A stretch of DNA of 63,854 bases, filler included, from Folioceros fuciformis (Eukaryota): assembly GCA_049999805.1 (NCBI GenBank). It is 6 parts of 6 records of this genome, joined end to end, with 100 filler letters (N's around TTAATTAATTAA, not from the genome) between each part and the next. Parts side by side here need not be neighbours in the genome. Positions count along the whole stretch, not along the records: positions 45,243 to 57,605 come from JBNGIO010002909.1; 5 more parts are not named here. One strand, given 5' to 3'. Below the pieces are notes generated by a model that ran no database searches, had not been told where the DNA came from, and worked only from the letters and a program-made list of their open reading frames with translations. Below, piece after piece: positions 31,556 through 61,493 of this stretch. How positions within the stretch are numbered: the stretch's first letter is position 1; every line of letters begins with the position of its first letter. Position numbers and translations under genes: made by a program.

Positions 31556-34500
31556 GGAGTTCCTTCACACAAAAAATCGCAGCCTACTCATTCTGTCACT
31601 CAAAATGGGAGTGTCGAAAGTTTTTTTCCTCTACATACTCCCCTTCTCACTTGTTGGTGTCCTCGCCAACCTACACATATTACTTTTTCACCCGCCAACC
31701 ATTCACCCTGGTTGGCAACAACTGTCCGTCCATCTGTTATAGCTGAATGGAGCCATTGTCGAAAACTTAAGTCACCGTATAGGGTCCTATCCACCTCAGA
31801 TGCAACTTCCCTGGGAAGCGCATATACCTGTTGTCATACAACAGGGCCAGATCTCCAGGTACCACCCACTCCTACCGTTTCATCCTGCGATCATGCCACT
31901 CTTTCCTCCTGGCTGGTATTTCCTGCATCGTTCCCATAGCCCGTTCCCTATCCTCAGTATGCTTCACGAACCCGATCAGGCATTCCAGTTGACTTTCCTC
32001 CACTGTCATTCGTTCCCTGTTTTGGATACGCGGGGTTAGGACATCAAACTCCACAGGCATGACCGGGTGATGCTCATAAGTGAGATAATAGGGAGTTTTC
32101 TGAGTGGTAATTCTTTCTGCAGTCCTGTATGCCCATAATGCCGAGTGGAGTTTAAGATCCCAGTCGTAAGAGTACTCCACCGTCAACTTATTCAGTATCC
32201 GACACAAGAGACCATTCACTTTTTCTGTCAATCCATTCGCCTTCGGGTTGTAGGGGGTAGTCCGCCGATGCTGTACGTTAAAATGTTCCGCTAGGTGAGT
32301 GATAACCTCATTGACGAAGTGTGTTCCTCTGTCACTCACCAGTTCTAATGGGCAACCACAACTGGCAATCACTTGCTCAAACAAAAACTTCGCCACCACA
32401 TGAGCAGTATCAACTTGGAGTGGTTGCGCTTCCACCATCCGTGTGCAGTATAGTCTGTTGCGACCAGAATGTACTGGTTCTCCCGAACTGGAGTCTTCAG
32501 TTGGATAGGACCCACGAAATCAACTCCCCACTTTTCGAACGGCGCCAAGGCCAAGGTCGGTACCAACGGCCATTGTGTCGTCGGGGTGGGCTTCCCTACC
32601 CGCTGGCATGTGTCACATTTTTTGACATACTCGGCTGTGTCCTTGTGCATTGCTGGCCACCAGTATCCCGCCTCCAAGATTTTCCTGCAGGAGATGTGTG
32701 CAGAGAATGTTCACCAAATGTTTTAGCGCGAAGTGATCCACATGGAACACGAATTCATAGGACAGCAAATAGTGCCGAAACTTCCTGACGGATTACACCA
32801 TCCCCAGGGCCTCTCGCTCCGTAGTGGTGTACGTCCGCTCCACCTCAGTAAGTTGACGTCCTGCATAATAAATCGGGTAATCCCTCTTCTTTCCATCTCG
32901 CTAGCTGAGTACGACCCCAATGGCAAAGGCAGAGACATCAACATATATATGGAACTTCTTACTCCAGTCAAGCCCCTTAAGTGTCAGCGCGGACACAAGT
33001 GTTGTCCTGAGGTCCTGAAATGCCTCCTCTCTAGGCGATGTCCACACCCACTCCTCATCCTTCCTTAGCAAGCTAGTTAATGGTGCCGCCCTTTCAGCGA
33101 AATTTTTAATAAACCTCCTGTAGTAGCCGACCATCCCAAGAAATCCTCTTAGCTCCTTCAGCGTAGTCGGCGGTTGGAGTGCTTCAATGATCTTTACCTT
33201 GTCGGGGTCGACTTCAATTCCTCTCGCAGAGATTCTATGCCCTAGCAAGATGCCTTCCGACATTCCGAAGTAACACTTCTTCGGGTGGAGGCATAACTTG
33301 GCCTCTCTACACCTCTCCAAGCACCTCCTCAGACATTTCAAATGTTCCTCCGCTATCCTGAACACGCAGAAATCATCCAGGAACACCTCCATAAAGTCTC
33401 GGAGGAAGTCCTTAAAGATTTTAACGATTGCCCTCATAAAGGATCGTGGTGCTCCAGTCAAACCAAACGCGCTACGCTTGTAGGCGTATGTTCCCCAATC
33501 GGTGGTGAATGTGGTCAGGGGCCAGTCGCTCTCTTGGAGATGTAGCTGGTTATAACCTGAGTACCCATCTAGGAAGGAATACATCATCCGGCTTGCAACT
33601 AAGTCCAAAATGTTGTCAATGAATGGTAGCGGAAAATGGTCCTTATGCGTTACCTTATTCAGTCTTCGCCAGTCTTGGCATACCCTGATTTTCCTTGGCT
33701 GCTTCTTTGGTACCACAACAATCAATGCTACCCATTCAGAGGTAACAATGGGATGAATGATGTCCGCCTTCAGGTACAGCTCCAGCTGTTCTTTCACCTT
33801 TAATGAATACTTCGGATTCAGCTTATACTAGAGTATTCTCACAGGCACTGCTCCTAGTTCCAGCTCAATCTTGTGTTCTCCCCACTCCCTGGGAATGCCC
33901 TTCATGTCCGTTACGTTGAAAGCGAACACATCGATAAATTCGGCCAGCATATCCTTCATCCCTTCTTCCAACACCGCGTCCAGCTTAGTGGAGAACTTAA
34001 GAATTTTTCCTGGCAGGACTTCCACATCCTTAATCTCATCCGCCTGCACCCATTCACGTTCTACCGGTGCTAAGGTGATGCCAAACCCTTCTTCAAGCCT
34101 TCGAGGTTCTGCCTCCCTCATTCCCCATTCGTGGAATAGTTCCTCAGAGGTGATCCTTGTGACGTCCTCTCGACCCTTAGGCGTCGTCGCACCCAATTCC
34201 TCCTCCTCGGCCTTTGCTTGTTCGACTGCCTTGGGGCTACCTCGCGTTCCTCTTGGAGTACTGCAATGGTCGGAGTGGCTTCCTCCAATTCCATCCCCAT
34301 GTCCTCTATGGCCTCTGTGACCCCGAAACAACTGACCAGGGGCAACTGTCGCTGATAATCCTTTTCCTCCTCCGACCAAGAGATATGTGCAAACGGGAAT
34401 CTCTCATCCTCATCTGCCTGCCCTTCCGTATCCTCAGCTGAAGTATACCCATCTGTTTCAGATGGGGTTTCACCAGCATACATATCTTTACTCCATGATA

Positions 34501-35209: not shown

Positions 35210-38200
35210 GTCTTGCCTGCACACACACAGGAGTAAAGCAAGGTAGCAATTCTCTTGTGCGTATCAATCTCTCCCCCACTGTCTATGACGAGGCTAACCC
35301 TCTGAGTGGGCATGTGCGTGCTTGTGCTGTGCAGGTGTGCGAGAGTAAAGAACTTGGTTGAGTGTCGAGCCCCAGACCCTTGTAGTGAGCGGTGTGTCTG
35401 TCCTTTGGGAGTGACTTAGTGAGTAGGTCTGCCACGTTTTGCTCTGTGGGTACGTAGACTAGGTCGATTTCTCCAGAGGCTACTATCTGCCTGATATAGT
35501 GCTGTTTGACAGCTATGTGCCTGGTCCGAGAGTGGTGCACTGGATTTCTGGACAGGGCTATGGCTGAGTGGTTGTCGCATTAGACAGTTGTGGCTCTGGG
35601 TTGAGGAAAACCCACAGACGCCATGAACAGGCAGTTGTAGACTATTTCTTGAGCGGCTGCAGTTGCGGCCGTATATTCTGCCTCGGTGCTAGAGAGTGCG
35701 ACCATAGTCTGCTTCTTCGACATCCAATTGACTGCTCCTCCAGAGAGGATTGTACAATTGGCAGTGATTGACTGTCTAGAGTCTTCATCACTTGCCCAAT
35801 TAGAGTCAGAGTAGCAGATGAGTAGTGGAAACTTTCCTTGTGACTCGTATTTGAGTCCAAGATGCTGCGTTCTTTTTAAATAGCATAGGACTCTCTTAAT
35901 CCCTGTCCAGTGTGCAATGCCAGGGTCAGCAAGAAATCTTGAGAAGACTTGTGCAGCCGGAGCTACATCAGGTCTTGTCCACCCGCTGATCCAGATAAGG
36001 CATCCTGTTAGCATACTGTAGGGTTTCTTTCCCATTTCCAACTTCTCAGCTTCTGTCTTTGGGCTCTGGTCTATGGAGAACTTCTCTCCCACAGCCATGG
36101 GAGTGATTGCTGGCTTACAGTCTGTCATAATAAATCTTTCTAACATTTGCCTTACGTAGTGTGCTTGGTGACAGAATATGCTGCTCTTGTCTGGACTGAT
36201 GACTATCTGTATGCCTAGGAAGAAAGTGAGCTGTCCTAAATCTGTCATGGAAAATTCAGCAGTGAGAATGGACTTCACTTTCTTCATGATGTCAAGGGAA
36301 TTGGCAAATATCTGGGCATCATCGACGTACAGTGCTAAGATAGCAAACATCTACCCTTGCCTCAGGATGTAGACGTTTGTGTCAGCATCACTCTGACTGA
36401 ATCCAGACTTGACCAAGTAAGCATGAATCTTCTGGTACCATATCCTTGGCGCTTGTTTTAAGCCGTATAGGCTCTTCCTTAACTGGCATACCTTATGTGG
36501 TTCAATCTTACTGACATATCCCTCAGGCTGGGTGATATACATTTCCTCGTTTATTTCACCATGCAGGAAAGCGGTCTTGACGTCCATTTGGTGAATATCC
36601 AACTTGCATTCAGCAGCCAAGGCAAAGAGCATCCTTACAGAGGAGGCTCGTACAACAGGTGAGAACGTCTCATGAAAGTCCAATCCCTCGACCTGCTTGT
36701 ATCCATGAACGACGTATCTTGCCTTATATCTGGCCACTGACCCATCAGGATTCAACTTTTTCTTAAACACCCATTTGCCTGTGAGTGGTTTGCGTCCTGG
36801 AGGCAGGTCTACCAGCTCCCAAGTCTGATTATCAATAAGAGACTGGTATTCAGAGTCTATGCCAACCTTCCAGAGCTTGCCTTCTGGGGAGGTCAGTGCT
36901 TCCTTCAGGGTAGTAGGTTCTCCGAGGTCCTGAGCTGCTATCAGGGCGCGTGCAACGTAGTTATGAGGTATGCGAAAGTCATAAGTTGCGGGAGCATCTG
37001 AGCTGGCTACAAGGTTTGCGTGCTGTCTTCGATACTCTTCATCCAATTCGTAGCTCATTGGTTTGTATGTCCACTGACTTGGATCTGTGGTATGACTCCT
37101 AGCAGATCTCCTCAGTTCTTGTGGTGCTTGAACTACTTCCTCAGCGACCTCTGAAGAGAGTTGCTCCACATTCTCCTCAACTTCAGGTGGAGGAGAAGGT
37201 GGGGGACTTTCGTAAATCACATTCTCATGATCCTCATGCTGAGGCTCGTCAACCTGGTCACTTGTCTCCGAGGTTGAGTCATCTGCAGTGAGGTCAGGTT
37301 CATCTTTTGGAAAGGCATCGGCAGGCTGTTCAGCGGTGGTTGGTACTTGTTGAGAGGTAACCAAATGTTCATCATGTGTTGAGGATGCATCTTGTTCATC
37401 AGTTGTGAGGCGTTCCAGGCCAGGTACATCTCTGCCCTTTTCTGAGGCTTGTAGAAGGAATTGCTCATCAAAGATAACATTTTTGGCATGCAGGAAACGA
37501 CGGTGCAGGGGGTCATAAAGCTTGTAGCCTTTAATGCCCTCTGTATAGCCGATGAACAGGTGTTTGGTTGCCTTAAAGTCCATCTTGCGTCTGACTTCAT
37601 CAGGTGTATGAGCATAGGCTGGACAGCCCCAGATCCGCAAGTGGTCCACCCGAGGGTTGACGCCAGTCCACCGCTCAAAAGGTGTAGCATTGGCAAAAGC
37701 ACGAGTGGGTAGCCTGTTTTGAATGTAGACAGCTGTGGCAACAGCTTCTGCCCAGAAGCACCGGGGAAGTTGGGCAAGATGCAGCATAGACTTAGCAGCA
37801 GCCTGTGTGACCTTGTTTTTGTTCTCACGCAAAGGATTTTGCTCATGCTCATAGGGAACGGTGAGTTGCCGAAGAATACCCTCCCGTGAGCAAAACTCCG
37901 TGAATTCTCCTGAGGTAAACTCGCCTCCATTGTCACTTCTCAAGCATTTCAATTTGTGACCTGTAAAGCGTTGAGCATACGAGAGGTACAGAAGAAAGCA
38001 AGAGAAGGCTTCACTTTTGTGCTTGAGAAAGTAAGTGACTGTAAACCAACTCTAGTCATCAATGAGATGCATAAAATAGAGAGCACCACTAAGGGACCGT
38101 GTGGACATGGGACCACAGAGGTCAGTGTGCACAGTTTGGAGTAGGTGAGTGGCCCTCGTCGCATCTTGATTGGGATGAGGAGCCTTATGGTGCTTCCCTT

Positions 38201-41100
38201 GTATGCAGGCTTCACAGAAAATGGAGTTCTCAGACTTGAAGTGAAGGGGAGTCCGATACAAGGATGAAGCACGTAGGGTCCGGAGACGTTGGATGTGTAC
38301 ATGTCCTAGGCGGCAGTGCCACAGTTGCATCTCATTGGGAGAACTGGTGGCTGTAGCGTGAGCAGCTGGTGGCCTTAGCTACTGTATAGGATTACTCTTC
38401 AAGTTGAGCTGGTATAGGTCATTCTTGAGAGTACATGTAACCAATAACTGGTGTGGTGCAGCAGCCTCCCGCAGAGCAAGACCATCACGTGTCATCTCCA
38501 AGGTAAGAAGTGGAGGAGACACGCGTCTTAATGAGACTAGATTTTTAGCCATCTGTGGGACAAAGATGACATCTAACAGAGTGATGGTCTTGCCTTGTGC
38601 AGGGTGAAGGACGACTGTGCCAGTTTCCTCAATGCATAGCCCACTGTCATCACCTAAAAGTACAAAGTGTCCCTTAGGAGAAGACGTGAAAGTGGTAAAG
38701 GCTGTGCGAGTGTTACAGACATGCGTGGTGGCACTTGAGTCTAGATACCAGGCATGCCTGTCTTGAGAAGAGGAGACCATACACACTGTGAGGATGGCCC
38801 CTGTATTTTTCTTGGAGGATACGTGAGCAGATGGAGGGGCTTCTCGCTTAGGTTCACCATTCTGCTTCTTGCGGCATTCAGATTCTAAATGCCCTGGTAT
38901 TCTGCACCATGTGCAAAGGCCTCTCTTAGCAGTACTGGGCTTGGAGGCTGACCATGCAGGGCGAGGAGAGCCTGGTTTGTAAGGTGGGCGGTTGCCACCT
39001 TGAGCACGCTGTCCTCGTCCTCGGGAAACGAACATGGCTCGCGCAGGGTTACTGGAGGAGGAGCCTCGACCACGAGTGTGAGTAACCTCCTCGTTGAGTA
39101 GAGCACCAATGATATCTGAGAGTGTGATTGGTGATGGTGTGCCAGCAGCCACTGCTGCTTGAGCTGTCTGTATGTGTTGATTTTGAGTGCTCACGAAGCT
39201 GTTGTATTTTTCTGGTAGTGACATAAGGAGGGCCACTGCAGCTTGGAGTTCATCAACAGCAGTGCCAGCCGTTATCAATTTGGTACGTAACATCCTAAAG
39301 CGGCTGACATGATTCTCAACAGTATCACCATCTCGCATTCTCAGATTGTAAAAGGCATGTGTGGCATGAACCAGTGTTGTGACACTTTTCTTCTGGTGTA
39401 CTTGGCAGAGTGAGTCCTAGATTGCCTTCGAACTGTCTACCTCCCGGGCATGAGACATCATGCTTAAATCCAAAGCAGAGTGGATCACGTTTTGGGCGCG
39501 AAGATCCTTGAGTTTCCAGGCATGCTGGTCTGCTCGGCTTGCAGCAGTTGCACCTGTAGTAGGTGTTGCTGGAATTGGAGTTGCTCCAGTAACGAACTCC
39601 CAAAGTTCGAGCTCTTGAAGAATAGTACGTACTCGAATCATCCAGATATCGAAATGTTGGCCACTAAATCTATCTTTGTCTTTAAAGTCATACTTAAAAT
39701 TGTTGACTATGACGTTTGCAGGAGGATTAGTGGTACCCATGACAGTATACTGACTGAATTGCGTTTGACTTAGATCAAACAGTTGATCATGATAGAGTGA
39801 AGAAGAATGACTAGAGGCAGGTGAATTATGTGAGGACCTTGGTGTGGAGACCGAACTATCAGAAGAGGGAGACTGAGAGAAAATAACACCAGACGCTAGC
39901 GTGCCAGGAGTGCTGACTGAACTTGGTGCAAGATCTGGAAGGGTGTACTTGTCTGAGTAGTCAAAAGGATTTTCTGGAAGGACAGGTGCCTGTTCGAACC
40001 CAGAGATTGGTGACTCTTCAGATATCCCCTCAAATCCAGAAGTTGGTAGCGTTTCAGGTACTTCTTCAGATCCTACCCTCTCTGGGGACAGGTCCAGATC
40101 TTGAGCTTGAAGGTGAAGCTTCAGAGCTCGATCTTGGGTGTGAAGTTCCGGGTCTAGCAGGAATCCAGCGCGGTGGCCTCCTTGCAGGGCTTGGATCCCA
40201 AGGTTCCGACATATTCAACCACCATCTTCCTTGATTTCTCCTCAAGTGTCATGTGTGTCAAGAATGCGGCCACTTCTGAGATGACGTCGTCCTTGGATCT
40301 TCCTACAGGTAAAATGCAAGGAAGCTCTGAGGAGAAGTTTGGCACGGTTTGATGGAGGTTGATAAATACTGTTCTTTCTGGCTCAGTTTCCAATGACTGT
40401 GAGCTCCGCTGCTTGATCACTCCTTCCAGGTGCGCAACCTTTGTGAACAACGCATTCAGATCATGAGACAGATGTTTGGATCTGCAATTGATGTTGTCGA
40501 CTTTGTAGCGGAGGCGCTCCTCCTGAACCTCACGCATCCGCCGAAAATCGCACAGTGTTGTGTGTGTGTGACGGCGCTCCTCAGCAAGCAAATTGTGGAC
40601 AGTCTTCAACGCCGGCTCTGTCTAACCAGGCGTGGTTCTAGGTGCGCTCGCAGATGGGCGCAGGTGTGCACTTCTTCCACAAGTATTCCAAGAACTCACA
40701 GCTTGGTAGGTGCAGGGTGACGGACGTCCGCTACACTGGCTCTTTGTGGATTGAAGGTGCGCCTTGAGCGGCCATTGCGAGGCATTGCTTAGAATAGCAG
40801 TCCAGTCATTCACCTATCTTGTGCAGGCCTATGGACTGACTCCTGTGTGCAGGGATACCCGGTTATCATCACCTGTTTCCTAGTGTACATGAGAACGCTA
40901 AGAAAGACGTGTAGAAGATCTGGTGTTCCTACACAAGCTTGTTTCCTACAGTGGATTGAGTCTTACACACACAGTGAACTAGTTGCAGACCATGCTAGAA
41001 GTGTACTTGGCTGATCATACTGTGCAGGACAGAGACCGAGGTGACGATCTAGCAATTTGCAGACGCAGGTTCAACAGGGTGGCTCAATGTTCCTTGGTGC
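35210..41100 (-). mobile_element. Near full-length Ty1/copia (gag from 39740, PR, IN, RT, RH, PPT, start of 3' LTR at 35266) with a long 5' region
   Basis: CTWCRIPGHLESEC, WYLDSSATTH, LWHCRLGH..CEAC, HTDLCGP, RSDNGGEF, LYVDD, RH. PPT AGTGGGGGAGAGAT then TG. Few stops and frameshifts; 5' LTR not found. Confidence 0.95.
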
Positions 41101-45242: not shown

Positions 45243-46480
45243 GTTGCTGCACAAATGAAGATGCAAGTACACCAAATGGACGTGCAAACTGCCTTTCTAA
45301 ATGGTATCCTAGAAGAAGAGGTGTACATGGAGCAGCGCGAGGGCTACATCAGTAAAACACATCCAAATCATTTCTGCAAGCTACAGAAAACTCTGTACTT
45401 TCTGAAGCAGTCACCAAGAGCCTGGTACAATCGCATCCATCAGTATTTGATCAAGTCAGATTTCGTGCAATCTCCAGCAGATGGAAATGTCTATACCTTG
45501 AGAGAAGCGGATGCGGTTGCTTACCTTGCCTTGTACGTTGATGATACGCTGATTTTTGCAAGTGCACCAAAGATAATGCAGAGAGTGAAGGACATTTTGT
45601 CCTCGGAATTCAAAATGACAGATCTGGGCATGGTCAAATTCTTTTTGGGAGTGCAGGCAGTCGTCAACCTTGTTGACTCCAGCATTTTCATCCACCAAGA
45701 GCATTACGTGTATAGACTCCTGGACAAGTTTGGAATGAAGGATTGCAAGCCTGTTAGCACACCTCTCGCAGTGGGAGATTTTTCTTCAGTGGACCAAGCA
45801 CCTGCAACTGACAAAGAGAGGCAGGAGATGTCAGGCATACCTTATGGAGAGCTAGCAGGATGCCTAGTCTGGCTGAGTGGATGGACAAGACCGGAGCTCG
45901 CCCTCTCTTCTCACAACATCTCTAAGCATATTGCAAATCCTGGACAACAACACTGGACGAGGGCGAAGAGGGCTTTGCGATACCTGAAGTTGCATCCCAA
46001 GCTCGGTCTCCTCTACAAGCATCAGCCAGGCAAGATCCCACCTTCCTTAAGCTGCTTTACTGATGCGGACTGGGCAGGCGACAAGGATACCCGCAAATCT
46101 GTCACAGCGTACTGCTTGATCTTTAGTGGGAGCACAATCTCTTGGGCATGTAAAAGACAGCAGATTGTGGCACTGTCTTCTACCGAGGCAGAGTACATAG
46201 CAGCAACCTCGGCCACACAAGAAGTAATACATGCAAGAGCTCTGTTGGACTCCATCGGCATGAAACAACTTGAGCCAACAATCATCTTCTGTGACAATCA
46301 GTCCGCCATCGCCTTGTCTTGGAATCCAGTTATGGACGCACGCACAAGGCACATAGACGTTAGATTTCATTTTATTAGGCAAGCAATAGCAGAAAGACAG
46401 ATCTATCTAGAGTATATTCCTACAGATGAGAACACAGCTAACATATTTACAAAGCCATTCTCACGAGATAAACACGACAG
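45243..46480 (+). mobile_element. Ty1/copia RT-RNase H fragment
   Basis: HQMDVQTAFLNG, LYVDD, FTDADWAGD, SSTEAEY, CDNQSAI, TRHIDVRFHFIR. Confidence 0.95.
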
Positions 46481-48129
46481 TAGCATCATAAGAGCTAAAC
46501 CATTCCCTATGCGGAGTAACATGGAAAGATGCTCCAACTTCAATTATCCAATTAGAGAATAAGTGACTCTCCACGGCTATCAGTTGTGCAGAATCGAAGG
46601 AAGAAGAAATAAGAACATCTCCATCGTCAACAGAATTCACCTCGTCAGGCTTGATACTCGAGCTTGCCTTATTGTTGCTCTGCTTCTTCTCCTTTCCTTT
46701 ATCCTTCTTGAACTTCTCGCAGTCCCTTTTGATGTGACCCTTCTGTGACAATGGTAACACTCAACATTGTTACGACTACGAGATTTGCTACGAGAAAGAC
46801 TTCGCTCCCTGTACTTCCCCTTTGAAGTGGACCTTCCTCTCACCATAAGGGCATTGTAATCTTTCGAAGGTTCCATATTCTTCCTGTTCACCTCCTCTGT
46901 TATTAGACTACCTTCTACATTTACAACGGTAAGACCACTGGCAGGAGCGGAATTACTCAGAGCTGTACGAAACATGTCCCAGCTCTCTGGTAATGTGACC
47001 AACAAAAACATAGCTCTCACGGAATGTGGGAACGAGATACCTTGACATGAGAGCTGGCTGAAAATGGTATTGAACTCATTCAGATAATCAGACATCCTCG
47101 TCCCTTCCTTCATCTTCAAGTCTACTAGCTGTTTCAACCAGTACAACTGAGAAGCCGCACTTTGCTTCTCATACAAGTCACACAACTTCTGCCATAGCTC
47201 GAAACTTGTGGTCTTGTCTTTCACGTTGAAGTAGACCGACTTCGACAATGTTAGCATGATGGTAGACCTAGCAAGTTCATCTAGATCCTGCCACTCATCC
47301 TGAGTCATGCTAACAGGTTTCACTCCTAGCAACTTTATCAGCTTGATCTACTTCTTCTGTACTAGAACATTATACACTTGTTCTTTCCAGAACGGGAAGT
47401 TAGTACCATCTAACTTCTTGAGATTGAACATGACGTTTTCTGAGGATGTCATGATTCAAAAATCGATGCAAATCAAGCAAAATGCTAGTTAGAAACTGTC
47501 GGAATGTAGATTTTGCTACCCTCAATCTCGTTCCGATCGACTCTCCACAAGCTAACCCGACGGGCCTGAATCCTCTGACTAAGATTCGATTCCGCCTCGT
47601 GGCCGGGATCCCAACTAGCTTGTGCCTTCGCCCTCAGCGTCGATGCTCCAGCGCCTGTCAGCCAGGTCCTCACCCGTCGGCGCTGCTAGCACCCGCCGAC
47701 CGGGTCCGTGCTGCTAGCGCTCCGCCTAGATGCCCTTACGGCCTTGTGCCTCTGTCTGCATCACTTGCAACCAACACCATCTTTGCATCACCTGCAGCCA
47801 ACACCATCTTTGCTCCACACCAAGCTCTAATACCACTTGAAGGACCGCTAGAGGAGCCACATGGTGAAGGAGGAGAGGAGGAGGCAAAGAGAAGAGGAGA
47901 AAAGAGAGGTCACACTCTCACACAAAGTCTCAATAGCAAGGGAGCTCAAGGGGGTATTTATACCCTCTAGAAAAGCTCCCTATGAAGCTTCACAAGAAGC
48001 GCACAGGAAGCTCAGCAAGAAGCTTCCTACAAATTAGCTTAAGCTAATCTAAACTAATGGTACTTAACTAGACACTAATCTTAGACTAAACACATTAGTC
48101 TAAGCAGATTGGGCTTTATTAACCCTACA
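46481..48129 (-). mobile_element. Ty1/copia 5' fragment: LTR family B 47838-48129, PBS 47824-47835, gag, start of protease
   Basis: TGTAGGG...TCCTTCA LTR; PBS TGGTATTAGAGC; gag LVDLKMKEG..LPESWD, CYHC..KGHIKRDC, WIIEVGASFHVTP. Confidence 0.9.
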
Positions 48130-51100: not shown

Positions 51101-51652
51101 AGATTCTCGTTCTCACATCGGGCAAACGGGTCAATGTTTCCCACCTGTGTCGCATGATGTACAGGGAATATCACAGATTGGAGCAGGTGATTGCAGGAGG
51201 CAATGGGCTAGCTCACACAGACCCTAAACCCTACACTCCACGGAACGAGTTCTCATTATGAATTGCTCTTATGCCAGTGGTCACTTCGGCATACAGTTAT
51301 CATTCCCGCACAGCCATCACGGCGTAAACATGTGTGTGTGGGAGAAGTCTGTGGCCCAGTATTATCTGGACTTCTACATTAAGGCAACATGAAACACTGT
51401 AGTTGGAACGACGACCTTAAATTTGGAAGAGCTCTTACTGCTTTCGTCCTGGGAAAAACCAGATAAAAGAAGAGTAGTCTGAATCACGGCCATCGTCGGC
51501 TTCGACCTGGAATCGTTCTCATCTTATCTCCCATTCCGTGCCAAAAGTAAGAACTTCGACACGTACACTTATAAGATACACCGTCCGAGGCAACAAAAAA
51601 TTCGAGTACTTCCAACACACGTCGAACGCTGTGCAGACTCACGTCATGCGGC

Positions 51653-54428
51653 TTAAAACTCACGAAATGTAAGATTCAAACGACCGGGCCGTAAGTTCGC
51701 TTTCTCGACAAGGGCAGCAGGTGCTGTCTTGGGGTGCACCCTGGTGATACTGTGAAACATCATTCTTGCAGGGCCCCCAAAGATGAACACATCGCCTGAC
51801 TCTAGTATCACCTTCTCAGCGTTCTCCAAGTCCCTGTCTATCCCGAAGCAAAACTCAGCTGAGTCTCCAATCGAGAAGGAAACTACAGGAGAGCCCCTCT
51901 TCAAGGTTTCCGGGCTTTCTGCCTTATCCTGGAAAATACAACACTTGTTCAGCTGTGAAGATAGTGAAAGCAACGTGGAAGCAGAACTTGGATTAGTAAG
52001 ATTGATTCACCTGATGCATTCCCAAATTGCCGGTCTGCTCATAGAAGTTCACGACACAAATATTTGGAACCATCCTTGGAAATGTGGTATCTTGGTCTTT
52101 GGCCCTCTTTTTCCCTCCGACCTCTTGATTCTTCGCCTTGGCCGCAGAAAGGGCTTTGTCGACCAACTTAAGAAAAATTGCCGGAATCGGAGGGGCCTCT
52201 GCATTGTCATGATAAGAGCGTCTGACTTCATACGCATTTGTATTGGGTTCCCAGTGCTTCCCAAGGCACATCATTCTCAAATGCAAGCTTTTGCCGTCAG
52301 CGTAGGACGGCGTGTAAAAGCCTCCAGGACCAAGCCCAAGTTTGCGGCATTCATTCACAATCTCGACCTGCCACAAATAGAACATGATTACACATGCACA
52401 AAGGCGCAGGAGCTACAGCGCTTGCAATGACAGCCATCCACGGAACACCCAGCCTCACCTGCTCGCCAATCGTTAGCCAACTTCTTAAGAAGGCAACGCC
52501 GGGAGACAAGTGGTGGACAGATTCCACCTGCGGAATGCTTCTGCTCAGGCTTTCCTGCCTCTCGGCCCTCTTCACATCCAGCAGTGAGGCAGCCAATTTT
52601 CGAGGCAACCCTCTTCCATCAGAAGCCTCGAAAAGAGGTGGACATATGTCAAACGTTGGTCCAGAAGCCGAGTTATCCACAGAAGATTTACTCCTGTGAT
52701 GGTGACGCCGGCCGTCAGCATCCTTAGCAACGCTGGTCTTATTCGGGTTTTTGTTTTCGATGGCCCCTGAGACTGAAGCAGTCGCTTCCCCATTTCTGGT
52801 CTCCAGTCTCTCCATACTGCATCGCTCCATGTTGCAAGCTTCATCCTCATCACCTCGTCTTTCACACCTTTCTGATACCTTTGGAGGTCTAAGTGGATAA
52901 TCAACTGCATTCCGGTTCTGGTTCCACCAGTTTCCTTCAACGACCTTTACGGTGGCATCTTTCTCATGCAAACTGAAAACTGAGTTGAGAAAGGGATCCT
53001 CATGCTGAACCCGGCCGGTGTTGGGAACAGAAACAGAGGTGTTTGGCCTCCGCCCTTGCTGTGACTTCGTACCAACAAAAGTAGGCTGCTCCTTTAGAGA
53101 GGGATTGGGTCTGATCCGGATTGAATTCCTTCCTTCCGCCCCTCCTGCTTCACCTGTGAGTATAGAAACACTTCTCTCTCCACTCTGCTTTCCATCTTCA
53201 GAAGCAGCCAAAACCACCTGTAGCAACAAAAGTTAGGATCACTACACAAAAACTATTACTCAAAGCTTTAGAGGAGCATGCAGATGCACACAAACCTTGC
53301 GACCAAGTAGATCTACAGTCACGACAACTCTCTTTCGGCGTTCTTCTTCTAGAGCATCCTTTTCCTCCTCCTTCTTCCGGAGCTCATCCTTCTCCTGAAG
53401 AAACAAAGAACAGCCAACGTGGTCAGAAGAGACACACAACTGCCGCTTCGGTGACATCCAACCCAAAGAAGTGATCAACTTAACATCCAAAAGAGAGACA
53501 AACCTTTGCAGATATCCACGCATCCCCTTGCATCTGATAGTAGTCCATCTGATCATCAATGACAGCTGTGCGGGGGGCAGAGTTCCTCCCATACTCAACA
53601 AGCCTATTTTTGAACTTAATGGCAGCAGCTTCCGAGTCTGTGGAAGCGACAGATATAACACCCTCCAAACCAGCATACTCACTGCCTTCCCGCAGTACCA
53701 GAGCCCCACAATAGTTGCAGGGTCCTTCACCCTCCTGCTCACACACAATTTTTCCACAAGACAGACAATTATTTACAAGCCCATGCCTGCTAGCTTGGCA
53801 ATTGCAAGGCTGACCACCACGGAAAACTACTGAGCCGTCTGCTGCCTCTGAGAGCGAGACTGACTTGCCTCCTTTCTTTGCTTTCGAGGTCACTGCTTTG
53901 GTCTTCGCCACCCCTGTTTTGATGAATGAGGCCACTCCGGACACTACGGAAGGTCCCCGATCCTTACCGGACACCTGTCCTTCTGAACCTACACTCCTCT
54001 GTCTGCTCCCATTCTTACTGCCTCTCTTGCTGCTGACAGCATAAAAGTCGTCTACACCCCTCTTCGTCGGCACTGCCTCCTCAAAGCTTTCCGCCTTGTC
54101 ACTATCTCCTCCTCTTCGCCGTAAGTACTCCTCTACAACGTCCTGGCTCCGCTTGTCCCCGACTATAGTCTGCCACACACAGAAACACAGCACCTCACCG
54201 TTACACTCCAGAGACCAACAAAACAAGCAGCCCAACTCCACATCACATCCTCAAGGACCCCCAAAAACTCACCCTGATATACTCCGATGCATCAACAGGA
54301 GAAGCCAGCTCGCAATAGGACACCAACGATGCCACCACTTCCGGCTCCAGCTGCAGGCCCGAAGACGAGTTCGAGCAAAGATCTAGAAGAGCCTGCTGAA
54401 GCCATCTCGCTGTCTCTGACAGCTCCAT
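51653..54428 (-). CDS. ASC-1/TRIP4-like C2HC5 zinc-finger protein fused to AlkB-family (ALKBH1-type) 2OG-Fe(II) dioxygenase, ~770 aa; exons 54428-54273, 54169-53504, 53394-53296, 53217-52459, 52367-52011, 51928-51653
   Basis: Five phase-0 GT-AG introns. Zn finger CNCQASRH..NCLSCGKIVC..PCNYC and TAVIDDQMDYY; AlkB MMCLG, PNICVVNFY, HQD, MFH, RLNLTFR. Both domains are certain; that they form one protein rests on stop-free exon 4. Confidence 0.85.
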
Positions 54429-55118
54429 CACCTCCGCTAGACCCAAATCTCAAGCTCTAAACCCTGCTCCAGATCCTAACCTCGATCAACCGAGATCCGA
54501 AACCTGGATCCTCCAACGACACCGCCTCAAACGACTCCGCGAAACCCGCAGTCCCTCCTCCTGGCCCCTCCCACGCACGCATGCCCTTCCTCCGCAGAAT
54601 CTTCACCTTTCCCACCCCTGGCTCTATTCCCGAACCCCAACAAATGGACAGTCTGACGAACCCTAGCTGGTCCAGCCCCACCATCGATCAACCTCCAGTT
54701 CCAACCACTCCACCAGATATGTATATGTACTGTACCTGGGCGTAAAGTTTACTCTTCCTTCCACTGTCCTCACACAAGCGTGTCCTCTGGCAAACAGACA
54801 GCGCCTTCTCTTTCGCGTTCAGCCGGGCCAGGCTCCACCACCGTAGCAAACAGAGAGCGACGGTGGGCCCATCTTCAGCACATTCCGGCATCACGGTGGG
54901 CTGTGCGCCGCCCACCTGCATGCCAACAAGATACATACTCTACAGAGTGTATGTAATGCCTTACTGTAAATGCTGACCCCCCATACCCTAGATGCTTATC
55001 ACCGACTTCCGATTCCTACATGTGTCCGGGCTGCAAACCAACCCCGGTGATATTCACGAGGAGTCTGGAAAGCACCCCAAGCTTTGCGCCCCTGCTTTTG
55101 GCACGTGAACCGGCCTTC

Positions 55119-55188: not shown

Positions 55189-55765
55189 CCTATCACTCGT
55201 TACCGTCATAGTCGCTAGCCAGCAAACTCGTGTCGCCGAGAACCCGAGAAAGAGAACAGCTCGCCGACCATACCCGCCTCTAAATTTGGCTGCTGATTTG
55301 CTAGAAGTGTACCCGCTGACACGCATCCGAGACCTGTATCCCCTCTATCCGCTATATCCGTTGGTGGGGTGTCGACCACGCCAAGAAAGGCCGCCGTGTC
55401 ACCGAGCCACACGCCAGACTCCCCTATAACATCCACGTCTATGAACTTTTGACACGCCAGTCGCGTGCTGGACGAGTTTTCGGAAGGAAAGCTCCGGTGA
55501 GCGAGGCTACCCTTTCCCTTGAGCGGCTGTTGCTTGTGAAATGTGCATGCGGGTTGTGCTCTTCGGCTACCTCGTGTCTGTGGGTGCGTGTGCTGGTGGG
55601 TGGTTCTGGGACTGCGGGAGTACACGTCTGCAAGAATAATTTGGGCTGAAAGTGGGATGGTTTTGCTTCAGGGACGTTGTGGTGAGTTGGTGAGGAGCAA
55701 GCACACATCGCTGAAGGACAGGAAGGCGGGGCAACGACGAAGGTCTGCAGCGGCAACAGTCCAAG

Positions 55766-57295
55766 ATGGCCGTGGCTATGGTGCGCCTCCGGTGGGCGGT
55801 AGCATGTGTGTTGCTTGTGTCCAGCCTGTGGCACGAGAGTGCGGAGGGAGCCGTGAAGGTGGGCTTGCACAAAAAGCGGCTGGATGAGAAGGGCGTCAAA
55901 ACTGCGATCAGGAGCGCGAGGGAGAGGGTGGAGGGTTTGCGGCAGAGGCTGGAAGGGGCGGAGAACGGGTTGGTAGGCTCGTCCCCGGACTACGTGGCCC
56001 TGAACAACTACCTGGATGCGCAGTACTATGGCGAGATCGGGCTGGGGACTCCGGCGCAGAAGTTCACCGTCATCTTCGACACGGGGAGCTCCAACCTGTG
56101 GGTGCCATCGGCTAAGTGCTATCTGTCCCTGGCCTGCTACTTCCACTCCAGATATTCTTCCAGCAAGTCTAGCACCTACAAGGCTAACGGCCAGTCCTTC
56201 GCAATTCAGTACGGGACCGGTTCCATGTCCGGCTTCCTGAGCCAGGACGACCTGACGCTTGGAGACATTGTGGTGAAGGGGCAGGTGTTCGCCGAGGCCA
56301 CCAAGGAGCCCGGGATCACCTTCCTGGCGGCCAAGTTTGACGGAATTCTGGGGCTGGGGTTTCCTGAAATCTCTGTGGACGGGGTGGTGCCTGTGTGGAA
56401 CAACATCGTGGACCAGAACCTGGTGCCAGAACCTCTCTTCTCTTTCTGGCTCAACAGGGACGTCAATGGCAAGGCCGGAGGCGAGCTGGTGTTGGGTGGA
56501 GTGAACGATGCCCACTTCGTAGGAGAGCACATATACACCCCAGTTACTAAGCGAGGGTACTGGCAAATCGGTATGGGGGATTTTCTAATCGCAGGCAAGA
56601 GCACCGGCTTCTGTGCAGGCGGGTGTCAGGCGATAGTGGATTCGGGAACCTCTCTCCTGGCCGGGCCGACGGGGATCGTCGCAGAGATTAACCACGCTAT
56701 CGGGGCTACAGGAGTGGTGAGCCAGGCTTGCAAGACGGTGGTGTCACAGTATAGTGATGTGATCATCGACCTGCTCATCTCCCAAGTGGCGTCCGGGAAA
56801 ATCTGTAAGCAGATCGGGGTGTGCTACGCCGTCTCCGACCCTGTGATCAAGACCGTGGTGGAGGAGGATGAGCTTCACAAGAATCTTGGGGGAGTGGGCA
56901 GTGATGTGGCATGCACTGTGTGCGAGATGGCTGTTATCTGGGCCCAAAATCAGCTGAGGGAGAACCAGACCAAGGCCCAAATCGAGAAGTACCTGAACGA
57001 GCTCTGTGACACCCTCCCCAGTCCTGCTGGCGAGTCGGTGGTGAGCTGCGATGTTGTGCATACTCTGCCCAAGCTCTCCTTCACCATTGCTGGAAAGAGT
57101 TTTGAGCTGGCCCCTGAGGACTACATTCTCCAGATCGGCACTGACAAGGACGCACAGTGCATCAGTGGCTTTATCGGGCTCGATGTGCCTCCACCCACTG
57201 GACCCTTGTGGATTCTGGGAGATGTGTTCATGGGTGTTTACCACACCATCTTCGACTACGGCAACGAGCGTGTTGGGTTTGCCCTGGCTGCCTAA
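55766..57295 (+). CDS. Typical plant aspartic proteinase (phytepsin, A1) with saposin-like plant-specific insert, single coding exon
   Basis: Signal peptide, NYLDAQYYGEIG, catalytic FDTGSSNLW and VDSGTS, PSI with cysteines and NQT, WILGDVFMG. Confidence 0.97.
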   Translation: MAVAMVRLRWAVACVLLVSSLWHESAEGAVKVGLHKKRLDEKGVKTAIRSARERVEGLRQRLEGAENGLVGSSPDYVALNNYLDAQYYGEIGLGTPAQKFTVIFDTGSSNLWVPSAKCYLSLACYFHSRYSSSKSSTYKANGQSFAIQYGTGSMSGFLSQDDLTLGDIVVKGQVFAEATKEPGITFLAAKFDGILGLGFPEISVDGVVPVWNNIVDQNLVPEPLFSFWLNRDVNGKAGGELVLGGVNDAHFVGEHIYTPVTKRGYWQIGMGDFLIAGKSTGFCAGGCQAIVDSGTSLLAGPTGIVAEINHAIGATGVVSQACKTVVSQYSDVIIDLLISQVASGKICKQIGVCYAVSDPVIKTVVEEDELHKNLGGVGSDVACTVCEMAVIWAQNQLRENQTKAQIEKYLNELCDTLPSPAGESVVSCDVVHTLPKLSFTIAGKSFELAPEDYILQIGTDKDAQCISGFIGLDVPPPTGPLWILGDVFMGVYHTIFDYGNERVGFALAA

Positions 57296-57705: not shown

Positions 57706-59586
57706 GCCGTCAGGAACCCCGAACAGTTGACAACTATCCAGTGTTATAATTGTCGAGGGATAGGTCACTTCGCAAGCAGCTGTCCTTCGGCGACACGCCA
57801 AGGAAATGGGGACTATGAGAGGTTGTGTACTGACTGCAAACAAATGGGGCATGTGGCTGGGAGCGTTCTATGTGCTACCCCGAAGAAACACGTGAGGATT
57901 GCTTCCACACCAGCAGATGTGATCCAGCCTTCGGGACCAAGTGCTCCACCCGCTACGCAAGTGACAGACGCATTAATGGCTGTATGGGAGGATGCAGAGG
58001 GACACATGCTAAGGGAATTGGAAGGCTTGGGCAGTCTGAACGAAAAATATTATGAAGAGACCCCTACCATGGCCGTTCGAACTCAGGGCCGAGCAAAGGC
58101 AGCAAAGAGCAGCGATCAATGTGCGCAAGGGAAGCGAGGAGGAAGGGATAGGCCTGTTTCCCCAGTGCAGAGGACACCTCTGAAGATCAGGCCACCCAAG
58201 TGAGCGGTAAAGAGCAGACGTTGCCAACTGTAAATATACCGGAGGAACTTCCGAGAAGTCCGGTAGAAAAGGAAACGAGAGGCAGCTGGTCTGAGGAGTC
58301 GGCGATGCGCGCTGGGGAGGCACGACAATCCATGGGTGAGCCGGACCAAGGGGCAAGGCCAGTAGAGGAGGCCCGGCGTTTGGACAGAATGAGGGAGTTG
58401 GGGTTCCCCCCGGATGTTCACCAGGAGGTGGCTGAAATGGTTCAAGAAGAATTAGAACAAACCCCGGAAGCCATGGTGGCAACGAGTGAGGGCCAATCCA
58501 AGCTCACGGCTGCAGGAAAGCAGGACGGGCCGAAGAACGCAAATTGTCAACCCATAGCAGAGGATGAGAAGGGGAGACCGCGAGTGCTGGATCTAGCAGA
58601 AGCCATCATGGATCAGAAATTCATGGTAACCTTTGGCCAATTGCTTAGGGATACGCCACGATACCGACAGCAGCTGCGACAGGCACTAAAGTTGGCACAA
58701 CCCAAGAGGAAGCCAAGTCTACCAAGGGTGAGGCCGAGGTTCCATGCTGTAAATTTGGTGACAATGGCGGATCAAGGGCCAGCGGAGTTGCAAATCGAAA
58801 TCGCGGGGTGTGTGATTAAAAAGGTACCTCTCGACATAGGATCTGGAGTGAACATCATGACTAAAGACACAGCTCGGAAGCTGGGATTAGAAATTGAGCA
58901 CACGGCCAAGGTTTTACGGCTGGCAGATATGTTAAAGATGGCGCCAGTTGGAGAAATTCTCGGAGTTCTGACCCACATCAGCACCATCCCATACCTTATG
59001 GATTATGTGGTAATTAAGCAGAAGGCTCCGGGTTATGAGGTGTTGATTGGAAGGACTTGGATGTATGGTGCTCGGTGTACTTTTAGATGGGGGCGGAAGG
59101 AAGTAGGTTTTAAACCGTTGGGCTGGGACCCGAAGACCAAGGAAGGAAGAATTTGCCTATCATGGAGTAAAGATATGTATGCTGGTGAAACTCCATCTGA
59201 AATGGATGGGTATACTTCAGCTGAGGATACGGAAGGGCAGGCAGATGAGGATGAGAAATTCCCGTTTGCACATATCTCCTGGTCGGAGGAGGAAAAGGAT
59301 TATCAGCGACAACTGCCCCTGGTCAGTTGTTACAGGGTCACGAAGGCCGTAGAGGACATGGAGATGGAATTGGAGGAAGCCACTCCGACCACTACAGTAG
59401 TCCGAGGGGAACGCGAGGTAGCCCTAGGGGCCACCGAGGGAGTCGAACCAGCAAAGGCCGAGGAGGAGGAATTGGGTGCGACGGCGCCTAAGGGTCGGGA
59501 GGACATCACAAGGATCACCTCTGAGGAGTTATTCCGCGAATGGGGAATGAGGGAGGCAGAACCTCGAAGGCCTGAAGAAGGGTTTG
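57706..59586 (+). mobile_element. Ty3/gypsy gag (two zinc knuckles) and protease; same family as 31556-34751
   Basis: CYNCRGIGHFASSC, CTDCKQMGH, LDIGSGVN, LIGRTW. 58905-59586 is near-identical to the reverse complement of ~34083-34751. Confidence 0.9.
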
Positions 59587-61493
59587 TATGAAAAATATAC
59601 GTTAAGTATATTAATGTTAACCTAGGCGTATTAGGTTTAAACTATATAAACAACTCTATGTTCATTGACGTTTATCCAATTCATTATTTTGTTATTCCTT
59701 ATTGCTTGCTGGCTATTGCACACACGATGTCAAGCTACCTTGACACGCTTCTAGCATTCCTTATTTTTCTTATGGTATCAGAGCAGAGAGTGCTGCTGAT
59801 GATGCTGTAGGTTGCAATGCCGAGAAACAGATCAAATTGTGGTTATGGTGGCAGAGGAGGATTTTCTAAGACCTTCTCTACACCAGCTTTCCTCAATCTT
59901 TATTTTGGCATTCCAACCAGCATTACGTGGACCGATGCAGACACCAAGGCTGAGCGTGATCTCAAAATTCTGGAGAATTATTGGCGCAACACGGGCCGTC
60001 ATAATCAGCATAATAGATCTCCTACAATTGGCACTGTTGTTCCGTGCTGCAACTATGGGCATTTATTTAAGAAAGATCCTTGCTCAGCAAAGCCATTTTT
60101 GAAACGACCAATTTTTGCACCGCATCCACGCACTGAGCCAGCCAGTACATCTGCAAGTGATGCATTGAATTCTGAATCAGCGGTACAAATTCTAGAAGGT
60201 ACCCTGAATGTAGTTGTCCAGCGACAAGAGACATTCTCTAAGCGTTTGGATTCTGCAGATTTTAAAATTTAGAAATTTATCTCTAAATTTTCATTTGAAA
60301 TTAGTCAATTTTCTAGACAATTTGAGATTTTCAACATTGCCCTTCACTCCTCTAACGAGGAGCGATCAAATTGAACTGACATTTGCTACCCTTTTCTAGT
60401 GTAGGCACTTTGCATTCAGATGTCTGTTGATTTTCGTGGTTTTCAGGCCCCTTGCTTCTGCTGATTCATTTTCATTGGCGGTTACTAACCGCTTCACCTG
60501 AATCCAAAAGTGCCCTAGAAAAGAAGGCAGTAGTTTAAGATAGACTTTTTCAGCTAAAACCCTAAAAAAAAGTCTTTTCAGATCTAATTGTCCCTACTTG
60601 TTTTGTAGTGAATTCCCTAATGTATGTCTACGAGAGACCATCTTTTAAATTTTCCTTTGTCACCTTATCTTTGTCATCAACGAGAATCTGTGCATCCTTC
60701 TAGTCCACCACCTAATCCGGCCCCTATTCCCCCGACACCTCCACCTCTTCCTCCTGTATAGCCACAATTTGTAGTCAGCATGTCTTCCTCTACTCCATCC
60801 TTCACAATAGACCTCAGAGGCCTTGATAGGTTCAATGGAACTAAATTCGAAGTATGGAGAGATTGAATGCAAACTATATTACGTGCAAGAGGCGTGTGGA
60901 CGGTTGTTGACGACACATATGTGGAGCCTGTGCTTCCTGCTGCTGGAACCACTACCACAATTGGAGGCACTCAAGTTACACAGGCTGATGTAGACAAATG
61001 GAACACAATGAACGAAATTGCTGTTGCCATCTTGATTACAAGCCTTGACGAAGTGCTGATTCCTGACGTGGAATACCTTACCAAGGCACATCAAATTTGG
61101 AGTCAGCTCAATAATACTTATGTTGTTCGGACTATGATGACTAAGTGCACAATGAAACATGAATTCTATACCTTGAAAATGCGAGAGGGTGACAGTGTGG
61201 CTGCCCACACCAGCAAGTTTCGACAACTTCGATCCCGTCTTGCCCAGTTGAACTCGACTACTTCAGAGGAGGATGCTTTGGCTCATCTTTTGCTCTTGCT
61301 CCCCCCATCATATCAGACTTTTGTATCTCTACAAAATGGTCCCTTGGCCATTGCTGGCCAGAATGTTGTTGCTGGTCACCCTGGTAATTATTCCTTGGAG
61401 GCTGTGATTGCTGCCCTTTATCAAGAGGAGCAGAGCCGACTTCGTATCAGTTCGAGCGGCTCCAGCAAGCTACGCATTGATCGAGTTCTCTAT
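59587..61493 (+). mobile_element. Ty1/copia 5' fragment: LTR ~59587-59772, PBS 59773-59784, upstream ORF, gag from 60780
   Basis: Perfect TGGTATCAGAGC. gag DRFNGTKFEVW..LKMREGDSV..LPPSY, truncated by the next element. Confidence 0.9.

Follow-up and report, generated by a model that had tools for sequence, protein, structure and literature searches.

A locus in the genome of Folioceros fuciformis (assembly GCA_049999805.1) raises the question of whether a zinc-finger protein of the ASC-1/TRIP4 type and an AlkB-type dioxygenase are encoded there as one protein and, if so, what such a protein would do. The locus lies in a 63,854-nt stretch of DNA made up of six joined parts of this genome, hereafter the window, within the part derived from JBNGIO010002909.1. 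The first-pass annotation, made from the sequence alone, had proposed an in-frame fusion of the two families. We find that the locus is one expressed gene with intact zinc and catalytic sites, as judged by sequence, and we regard the TRIP4-AlkB gene and its fusion as virtually certain to be real. The annotated model of six exons and five phase-0 GT-AG introns (103, 109, 78, 91, and 82 nt on the minus strand) was reproduced exactly (Table 1). Every exon length is divisible by 3, and the spliced coding sequence (CDS) of 2313 nt is a single open reading frame (ORF) of 770 aa with one terminal stop. The zf-C2HC5 zinc finger, the TRIP4 third domain, the TRIP4 lasso peptide, a linker, and the AlkB dioxygenase follow each other in that order, and the junction between the two halves falls, as annotated, inside the 759-nt stop-free exon 4.

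Pfam was run separately on each exon. Exon 2 matched zf-C2HC5 (PF06221; 1.5e-12, 47.8 bits, cutoff 25.8), exon 3 matched TRIP4_3rd (PF23134; 5.1e-07, 30.4 bits, cutoff 27.7), and exons 5 and 6 matched 2OG-FeII_Oxy_2 (PF13532; 7.2e-13 and 2.9e-22), jointly covering profile positions 17–194 of 194. No Pfam family matched exon 4. Against a profile of 18 fused relatives, described below, the window protein matched end to end with an E-value of 9.6e-261 (profile positions 1–714, protein residues 1–769), which places the fusion architecture far beyond chance.

Contigs that bear on transcription came from four runs in four studies: X1, from the window's own organism, and X2, X3, and X7, from relatives that are ~90% identical. 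No run is recorded as RNA, and RNA origin was judged from the contigs being intron-free; a contig without any intron implies spliced RNA or, less likely, a processed copy. The X1 contig (2812 nt) aligns to the window in 7 pieces with 0 differences, from the 5′ untranslated region (UTR) through the 3′ UTR, lacks all five introns, each spliced exactly where predicted, and crosses exon 4 unbroken. It thereby places exon 2 and exon 6 on one molecule, the check that the first-pass annotation had named, and carries both halves of the protein on one spliced transcript contig, confirming a genuine in-frame fusion. The same introns are skipped and exon 4 is bridged in the contigs of X2 (1833 nt), X3 (1951 nt), and X7 (1665 nt). 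The flaw that the annotation had foreseen, a linker interrupted by a stop or an indel, did not appear in X1, which is identical to the window, and the linker indels of the relatives amount to net multiples of 3: X2 has +2 and +1 five bases apart, plus −15, and X3 and X7 have 87 nt in place of 99 nt.

The alignment and profile (A1) built from the 18 fused relatives were searched against PDB sequences. The N-terminal half matched human TRIP4 (8alz_A) with an E-value of 1.1e-53 over TRIP4 residues 29–427, and yeast Rqt4 (7zpq) with 1.7e-16. The N-terminal helical domain, the C2HC5 finger, the third domain, and the lasso are common to the window protein, human TRIP4/ASC-1, and Rqt4, and are collinear. 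All eight zinc-binding residues (C, C, H, C, C, C, C, C) can be seen in the window protein and in the alignment, and their columns are invariant or nearly so in the 18 fused relatives. The finger is the most conserved segment of the protein, with an identity of 0.88 to 17 relatives over residues 181–200. The profile alignment sets RIKPNP..PVFV against VNPNMYQSPPQWV of TRIP4, and ..GRVQ against ..LRIQ(427). In the available part of the structural report on human TRIP4 (PMC10076317), the lasso peptide is defined as residues 375–424 and the ASCH domain as 425–578, residues 411–424 occupy a groove on the C-terminal cassette of ASCC3, close to where DNA is presumed to exit, and the zinc finger by itself is enough for stable ASCC3 binding. 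What had been annotated as a TRIP4-type tail is thus, by profile alignment, the lasso peptide that occupies the ASCC3 groove in human TRIP4. In yeast, the Rqt4 zinc finger sits on RecA1 of the Slh1 C-terminal cassette (PMC9938168).

The match to TRIP4 stops at residue 427, 3 residues into ASCH. No window exon gave a Pfam match to ASCH at E≤1, and ASCH was found in 0 of 120 plant proteins, the best 120 of 269 that scored with the exon 2 query. The window protein therefore has the zinc finger, third domain, and lasso of the TRIP4/ASC-1/Rqt4 family and lacks the C-terminal ASCH; unlike human TRIP4, it continues after the lasso with the linker and the AlkB domain. To our knowledge yeast Rqt4 is also without ASCH, and ASCH may not define the wider family. 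An AlphaFold2 (AF2) model of the Ceratodon orthologue P0005 resembles beads on a string and has helical residues 1–73 at a predicted local distance difference test score (pLDDT) of 89–97, a zinc finger and helices of moderate confidence, a lasso and linker below 50, and an AlkB core above 90.

The C-terminal half has the 2OG-FeII_Oxy_2 fold and the HxD...H and RxxxxxR sites of AlkB enzymes. The HxD motif is interrupted by intron 5 (MHQ|DKAES), MMFHSI contains the second His, and RxxxxxR is RLNLTFR; these, like the zinc ligands, can all be read in the window protein, in agreement with the annotation. The catalytic columns H656, D658, H716, R740, and R746 (P0005 numbering) are invariant in the 18 fused relatives. 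The best PDB match of the C-half profile is 5xeg/5xoi, rice ALKBH1 (E 4.8e-111), followed by E. coli AlkB (about 5e-22) and ALKBH1 (about 1e-13), and exon 6 alone matches 5xeg with 3.3e-30. An FD[IL]C motif at the start of this half (PTFDIC in the window) is found in 20/20 fused proteins, 80/102 standalone AlkB proteins, and 2/111 standalone ASC-1 proteins. The plant ALKBH1-type N-terminus recognised in the annotation is borne out by this motif and by the 5xeg match, and on sequence grounds the AlkB half is a member of the rice OsALKBH1 / AtALKBH1B-D subfamily. A relationship to ALKBH3 was also considered and ruled out; the 23 PDB matches at E≤0.01 contain no ALKBH3 chain, and the half falls in the OsALKBH1 clade instead. 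The 5xeg structure is that of rice ALKBH1 (PMC8118384), and the available text of two papers reports the rice enzyme as a demethylase of N6-methyladenine (6mA) in single-stranded DNA (ssDNA) acting at R-loops (PMC10469495, PMC8118384).

The fused architecture is widespread in streptophytes. When exon 2 was used as query among longer proteins (269 scored), PF06221, PF23134, and PF13532 occurred together in 9 of the best 120, and the remaining named entries were angiosperm ASC-1 proteins (390–440 aa) and one Ginkgo model. A second query, the AlkB half of P0005, scored 293 proteins, and 18 of the best 120 had the fused architecture. Exon 4 alone as query among longer proteins scored 0 of 3301 candidates, which is weak evidence. 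Fused orthologues were identified in mosses (Ceratodon M758_10G151100 and Sphagnum BDL97_15G031200), liverworts (Marchantia AXG93_857s1170, Riccia R1flu_002776 and R1sor_005205, and Calypogeia), the lycophyte Diphasiastrum (O6H91_14G029000), the fern Ceratopteris (KP509_18G051500), the conifer Cryptomeria (SUGI_0242230), Ginkgo (GbALKBH1B), and the zygnematophyte Closterium (CLOM_g18939). A fused record named jgi/Mesen1, which we take to be Mesotaenium, was also among the matches. The window protein is 46–50% identical to the fused orthologues and collinear with them end to end. Architecture and part order are the same; the species differ, and the sequence and length of the linker are lineage-specific. 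More than 20 independently predicted or assembled proteins of other species are collinear across both halves, and several are encoded on Logan contigs that barely exceed the CDS (for example, 716 aa on 3094 nt), which indicates intron-free transcripts. The ESM Atlas gave one streptophyte cluster with a score of 0.85, a lead only. The conserved fusion in bryophytes and ferns that the annotation had proposed to look for is thus present, with annotated examples extending to a lycophyte, conifers, and zygnematophytes. The first-pass suggestion that the fusion is undescribed did not hold: it is annotated in at least 12 named streptophytes and one haptophyte, and the Ginkgo protein receives a passing mention in the available text of PMC13296198.

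In angiosperms, as the annotation had stated, the halves are separate, and we found standalone ASC-1 and standalone AlkB proteins only. The motif ending the lasso is present in 20/20 fused proteins, 91/111 standalone ASC-1 proteins, and 0/102 standalone AlkB proteins, and this distribution, together with that of FD[IL]C, places the angiosperm break in the linker. Rice OsALKBH1 (LOC_Os03g60190) and Arabidopsis ALKBH1B/C/D belong to the same AlkB subfamily as the fused proteins, share FD[IL]C with them, and are nested in the fused clade; they differ in being standalone proteins of 411–600 aa with unrelated low-complexity N-termini and no lasso motif. Among the named entries in the best 120 of 269, no standalone ASC-1 was seen in non-seed plants, where the fused gene may be the sole TRIP4 orthologue.

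Two further kinds of chain were seen in these searches. R1flu_002774 of Riccia fluitans (P0230; 775 aa), two gene numbers from R1flu_002776, combines Ufd2P_core with an AlkB domain of the same subfamily and appears in the tree as a recent Riccia-specific duplicate. P0235 and P0237 of Closterium sp. Naga37s-1 (1499 and 1434 aa) have the ASC-1-AlkB parts together with a Tub domain and are probably merged neighbouring gene models.

To follow the architecture beyond streptophytes, 1.84 billion representative sequences were searched with the profile, yielding 5670 hits, of which 600 had E≤1e-30; among the top 150, about a dozen contain both halves. The haptophyte Chrysotila carterae (UniRef A0A7S4BLK2, 859 aa) and the EukProt entries GEMP0101474x (among them GEMP01014740.1.p1) encode zf-C2HC5, TRIP4_3rd, ASCH, and 2OG-FeII_Oxy_2. 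These proteins, like that of the window, unite a zinc finger, a third domain, and an AlkB of the same subfamily in one chain, but they keep a TRIP4-type ASCH between lasso and AlkB where streptophytes have the unconserved linker. The protist ASCH domains match that of human TRIP4 at 1e-34 to 1e-38, and the AlkB halves match rice 5xeg (1.6e-46 / 1.2e-32) far better than E. coli AlkB (2.5e-13 / 2.1e-6). An AlkB-core tree places the protist proteins outside the streptophytes (support 96), with the GEMP entry on a very long branch. The ESM Atlas contained no protist cluster among the searched clusters of at least 50 members. We had considered that AlkB replaced ASCH, an idea dropped when the protist proteins were found to carry the two together; a ZnF-lasso-ASCH-AlkB ancestor that later lost ASCH fits better. 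Independent fusions or transfer behind the protist pairing are possible. The same ZnF-TRIP4_3rd-ASCH-AlkB chain is present in P0383, P0330, and P0382 of Chrysotila carterae and in P0336, P0371, and P0372 of EukProt GEMP0101...; the 90% clusters to which these proteins belong also include shorter forms in which AlkB is missing wholly or in part, maybe isoforms or partial transcripts.

To place the window protein, trees of each half were constructed by a quick IQ-TREE search, with support from the SH-like approximate likelihood ratio test (SH-aLRT) only, using chosen subsets of the standalone proteins (17 of 102 AlkB and 19 of 111 ASC-1) and leaving out the truncated P0002. With two zygnematophytes as the root, the tree of AlkB halves groups the mosses (98), the liverworts (98), the ferns (96), and the seed plants (99); within the last, the fused proteins of conifers are the sister group of the whole set of angiosperm standalone proteins (100). 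In the ASC-1-half tree, the standalone ASC-1 proteins of Ginkgo and angiosperms form one clade (97), with the conifer fused N-halves as its sister (84). Ginkgo has two loci with 40% identity to each other: Gb_33235, a standalone protein, and Gb_02218, which is 54% identical to a conifer-type fused protein and ends in FDIC..LLKNWLS. The simplest explanation is that the gene duplicated in the stem lineage of seed plants, that AlkB was then lost from one copy, and that the second copy remained fused in gymnosperms but was stripped of its ASC-1 half in angiosperms. The window protein falls at the base of land plants in both trees, without resolved placement. We conclude that the gene very probably belongs to an ancient fused orthogroup that was later split.

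The contigs also contain a joint that was not part of the annotated gene model. In all four runs (X1, X2, X3, and X7), position 53733 is joined to 53868, within the zinc-finger exon; a one-base shift of the joint, allowed by a 3-base ambiguity at the border, sets the borders at 53868..53735, where AG|GCAAGT ... GAGCAG|G forms a well-formed GC-AG intron. When this 134-nt segment is spliced out, the core of the zinc finger is lost and the reading frame changes; the ORF then ends after codon 154, ahead of four exon junctions. The long ORF that comes next in the spliced form, 511 aa from MDYYQMQ, would give TRIP4_3rd, linker, and AlkB without the zinc finger. The retained form is represented by a 191-nt contig in each of X2, X3, and X7; the sole X1 contig is the skipped form and carries no weight on the absence of the retained form. 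The 191-nt region is the most conserved nucleotide stretch between the relatives, with 3 differences in each of the three, against 171/2027, 179/1958, and 134/1498 in the other coding pieces (8.4–9.1%; Fisher p 1.9e-4, 5.5e-5, and 1e-4) and p values of 0.0071, 0.0013, and 0.063 against flanking exon 2 alone. Part of this conservation is protein constraint on the finger; an extra constraint on the RNA is only suggested. The 134-nt segment is probably an exitron, an intron within the coding exon, subject to regulated unproductive splicing. This conserved GC-AG exitron that removes the zinc finger is new in this analysis, and a literature search found no paper joining "exitron" with "activating signal cointegrator".

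A separate observation concerns the older Marchantia polymorpha model AXG93_857s1170 (P0125), which is without a block of the zinc finger (A1 columns about 245–285), the gap ending at ..CEQ|EGEG, the acceptor point of the exitron. From its sequence, this model hints that the internal acceptor may be used in liverworts too.

What might such a protein do? The best overall explanation of the locus, to which we assign a probability of about 55%, is an old TRIP4-AlkB fusion that acts as a helicase-docked demethylase. The tethering mechanism taken by itself, which is modelled on human TRIP4 and yeast Rqt4, is tentative and stands a little short of an even chance. The zinc finger and lasso would dock the protein on the C-terminal cassette of an ASCC3/Slh1-type helicase, as in those two proteins, and the AlkB domain would swing on its tether near the strand exit, where it would oxidatively strip methyl groups from single-stranded nucleic acid exposed by the helicase. 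Candidate substrates are damaged mRNA at collided ribosomes (1-methyladenosine, m1A, and 3-methylcytidine, m3C) or unpaired DNA and R-loops (6mA, as for rice ALKBH1). The exitron would yield a second, truncating isoform and probably tunes the amount of helicase-docking protein. A comparable arrangement is the human ASCC3-ALKBH3 complex, in which an AlkB protein is functionally coupled to the helicase of the ASC-1 complex that supplies its single-stranded substrate (PMC10076317, as far as available); there, however, the AlkB is of a different clade and the link is non-covalent, whereas here the TRIP4 and AlkB parts are one chain.

Several observations weigh against a helicase-docked demethylase. 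In the same source, human TRIP4 and ALKBH3 bind ASCC3 mutually exclusively, and TRIP4 knockout leaves sensitivity to methyl methanesulfonate (MMS) unchanged. The known ASCC-AlkB repair route thus works without TRIP4, and the mutual exclusivity means that the fusion is no simple covalent copy of the human ASCC-ALKBH3 complex. The 23 PDB matches at E≤0.01 include no ALKBH2 or ALKBH3 chain, so the AlkB half is not ALKBH3-like. Angiosperms split the two halves and retain no ASC-1 remnant on the AlkB side. The linker (residues 383–493) is unconserved, with identities of 0.04–0.15 to 17 fused relatives and a column occupancy of 0.12–0.88, and the AF2 model of P0005 gives no fixed inter-domain geometry (predicted TM score, pTM, 0.49). 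The conifer fused N-halves lie on very long branches (1.65 and 1.24, with a long-branch warning from the tool), which suggests that the tether is less tightly constrained once ASC-1 is also available as a standalone protein. Finally, in the only full-length contig from the window's organism the exitron is spliced out, and the contig as assembled encodes just 154 aa from the first ATG.

The alternative that fares best is that the AlkB domain acts independently of the helicase as a chromatin-level 6mA/ssDNA demethylase, the ASC-1 half being a nuclear or coactivator address or a passenger. The characterised members of the clade, OsALKBH1 (PMC8118384, PMC10469495) and AtALKBH1A/1D (credited to Li et al. 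2024), are reported to remove 6mA from DNA, and the angiosperm enzymes function without any ASC-1 part; the rapid evolution of the conifer N-halves and the unconserved linker are also what this alternative would lead one to expect. However, the zinc finger and the lasso, which make the helicase contacts, are the best conserved parts of the N-half across the 18 fused proteins, the TRIP4-AlkB pairing persists from a haptophyte to gymnosperms, and the fused gene, if it is the sole TRIP4 of non-seed plants, would need to serve the RQT/ASC-1 complex anyway. We hold an independently acting AlkB domain to be unlikely, though worth keeping in view.

The exitron suggests another possibility, that the full-length fusion is a minor product. 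Exitron-spliced mRNA would then dominate and be degraded by nonsense-mediated decay (NMD), or give the 154-aa fragment and possibly the 511-aa finger-less TRIP4_3rd-linker-AlkB protein. The skipped form of the X1 contig, the same joint beside a retained-form contig in X2, X3, and X7, the codon-154 stop ahead of four exon junctions, and the 511-aa ORF from MDYYQMQ all speak for this, as does a 524-aa relative (P0241) with TRIP4_3rd and AlkB and without the zinc finger. P0241, however, is encoded on a 1767-nt contig and may be 5′-incomplete, and contig depths, by the tool's own warning, are unfit to rank isoforms or give ratios and were not used for that. Retained-form contigs exist in three relatives, and the zinc finger would not have held its conservation if it were rarely translated. 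A minor full-length product is improbable. An artefact in which chance reading, mis-assembly, or read-through had joined two adjacent genes can scarcely be entertained: a contig across two genes is no proof of a single transcript, yet nothing else was found in favour of an artefact, the junction lies within one stop-free exon, contigs of four organisms from four studies bridge it with in-frame indels, and more than 20 proteins of other species are collinear over both halves.

Returning to the helicase-docked fusion, a bolder version of its history can be drawn, which we consider doubtful. The OsALKBH1-type AlkB would have arisen as a C-terminal module of TRIP4 in an early eukaryote, in the ZnF-lasso-ASCH-AlkB form that the haptophyte still shows, and the ASC-1/RQT helicase complex would have carried a built-in demethylase through most of streptophyte history, cleaning single-stranded RNA or DNA as it leaves ASCC3. 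The angiosperm "6mA demethylase ALKBH1" would then be a freed remnant, and the exitron a switch, possibly autoregulatory through NMD, that sets the amount of docked enzyme.

Table 1. Features of the TRIP4-AlkB gene in the window, in window positions.
Feature	Position	Strand	Description
Transcribed region	51300-54616	minus	one spliced X1 contig; contig 5′ end at 54616, runs 92 nt beyond 51300
5′ UTR (minimum extent)	54429-54616	minus	X1 contig piece 54273-54616; ATG at 54428
Exon 1 CDS	54428-54273	minus	52 aa; start of N-terminal helical (PWI-like) domain of ASC-1
Exon 2 CDS	54169-53504	minus	222 aa; disordered K/S-rich stretch, zf-C2HC5, start of TRIP4 third domain
Exitron (134-nt GC-AG intron within exon 2)	53735-53868	minus	skipped in contigs of 4 runs
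zf-C2HC5 zinc finger	53690-53812	minus	residues 120-160 of exon 2; all 8 ligands; Pfam
Exon 3 CDS	53394-53296	minus	33 aa; TRIP4 third domain
Exon 4 CDS	53217-52459	minus	253 aa, 759 nt, stop-free; fusion junction inside
Lasso-like peptide	52993-53118	minus	protein residues 341-382, RIRPNPSL..PTFV..GRVQHEDP; profile alignment to human TRIP4
Unconserved linker	52660-52992	minus	protein residues 383-493, ~110 aa
FDIC motif and N-terminal extension of AlkB domain	52459-52659	minus	protein residues 494-560
Exon 5 CDS	52367-52011	minus	119 aa; AlkB core first half, ends ..MHQ (His of HxD)
Exon 6 CDS	51928-51653	minus	91 aa + stop; AlkB core second half (Asp of HxD, second His, RxxxxxR)
3′ UTR (minimum extent)	51300-51652	minus	X1 contig piece 51300-51927

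The other genes of the window are ordinary plant genes and retroelement pieces. An aspartic protease of the phytepsin type with a saposin-like insert is encoded as a single, divergent ORF at 55715-57295 (plus), ~1.1 kb from the 5′ end of the fusion gene; a 381-aa stop-free frame without a Pfam match overlaps it on the opposite strand (55439-56584, minus) and is probably no gene. An intron-free ORF of ~1084 aa at 14797-18051 (minus) encodes a pentatricopeptide repeat (PPR) protein with E, E+, and DYW deaminase domains, of the organellar RNA-editing factor type, and a 465-aa ORF at 9449-10846 (plus) has fatty-acid desaturase and DUF3474 domains. Retroelement fragments of copia type (gag, Pol_BBD, RVT_2) and gypsy type (RVT_1, RNase H) occur on both strands at 30532-31746, 32901-33827, 36351-39416, and 45243-46562, and a 479-aa stop-free frame at 58152-59591 (plus) has no Pfam match.

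The architecture is already catalogued in databases and has been seen once in the literature, so that the window gene adds a member to an architecture that is known but unstudied. In the available text of PMC13296198, the "zf-C2HC5 domain in GbALKBH1B" (Ginkgo, 665 aa) is listed as an extra domain without comment. A Marchantia preprint (10.64898/2026.09.29.755302) names MpALKBH1D, with two transcript models, as an isolated STRING node, and its accessible part mentions none of TRIP4, ASC-1, cointegrator, or zinc finger. The portion available of PMC4738411 discusses TRIP4 and several AlkB fusions, the TRIP4-AlkB fusion not being among them. Our literature search, which left figures, supplements, and subscription journals outside its scope, found no interpretation of the architecture, and a query combining AlkB, ASCC3, fused, and plants gave nothing relevant by title or abstract.

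The union of TRIP4 and AlkB in a single protein gives independent evidence, from evolution, for a link between dealkylation and ASCC3-type helicases, set against a human background in which ASCC3 is linked to ALKBH3 and separately to TRIP4, as mutually exclusive partners. It recasts the "6mA demethylases" of the plant ALKBH1 type as proteins derived from an ASC-1 subunit and predicts that, in crops and Arabidopsis, ALKBH1-type enzymes may partner with ASCC3 in trans. The hypothesis is directly testable in Marchantia and Physcomitrium, two plants in which TRIP4 may have no orthologue other than the fused gene, and the natural split of the two halves in angiosperms provides a built-in comparison.

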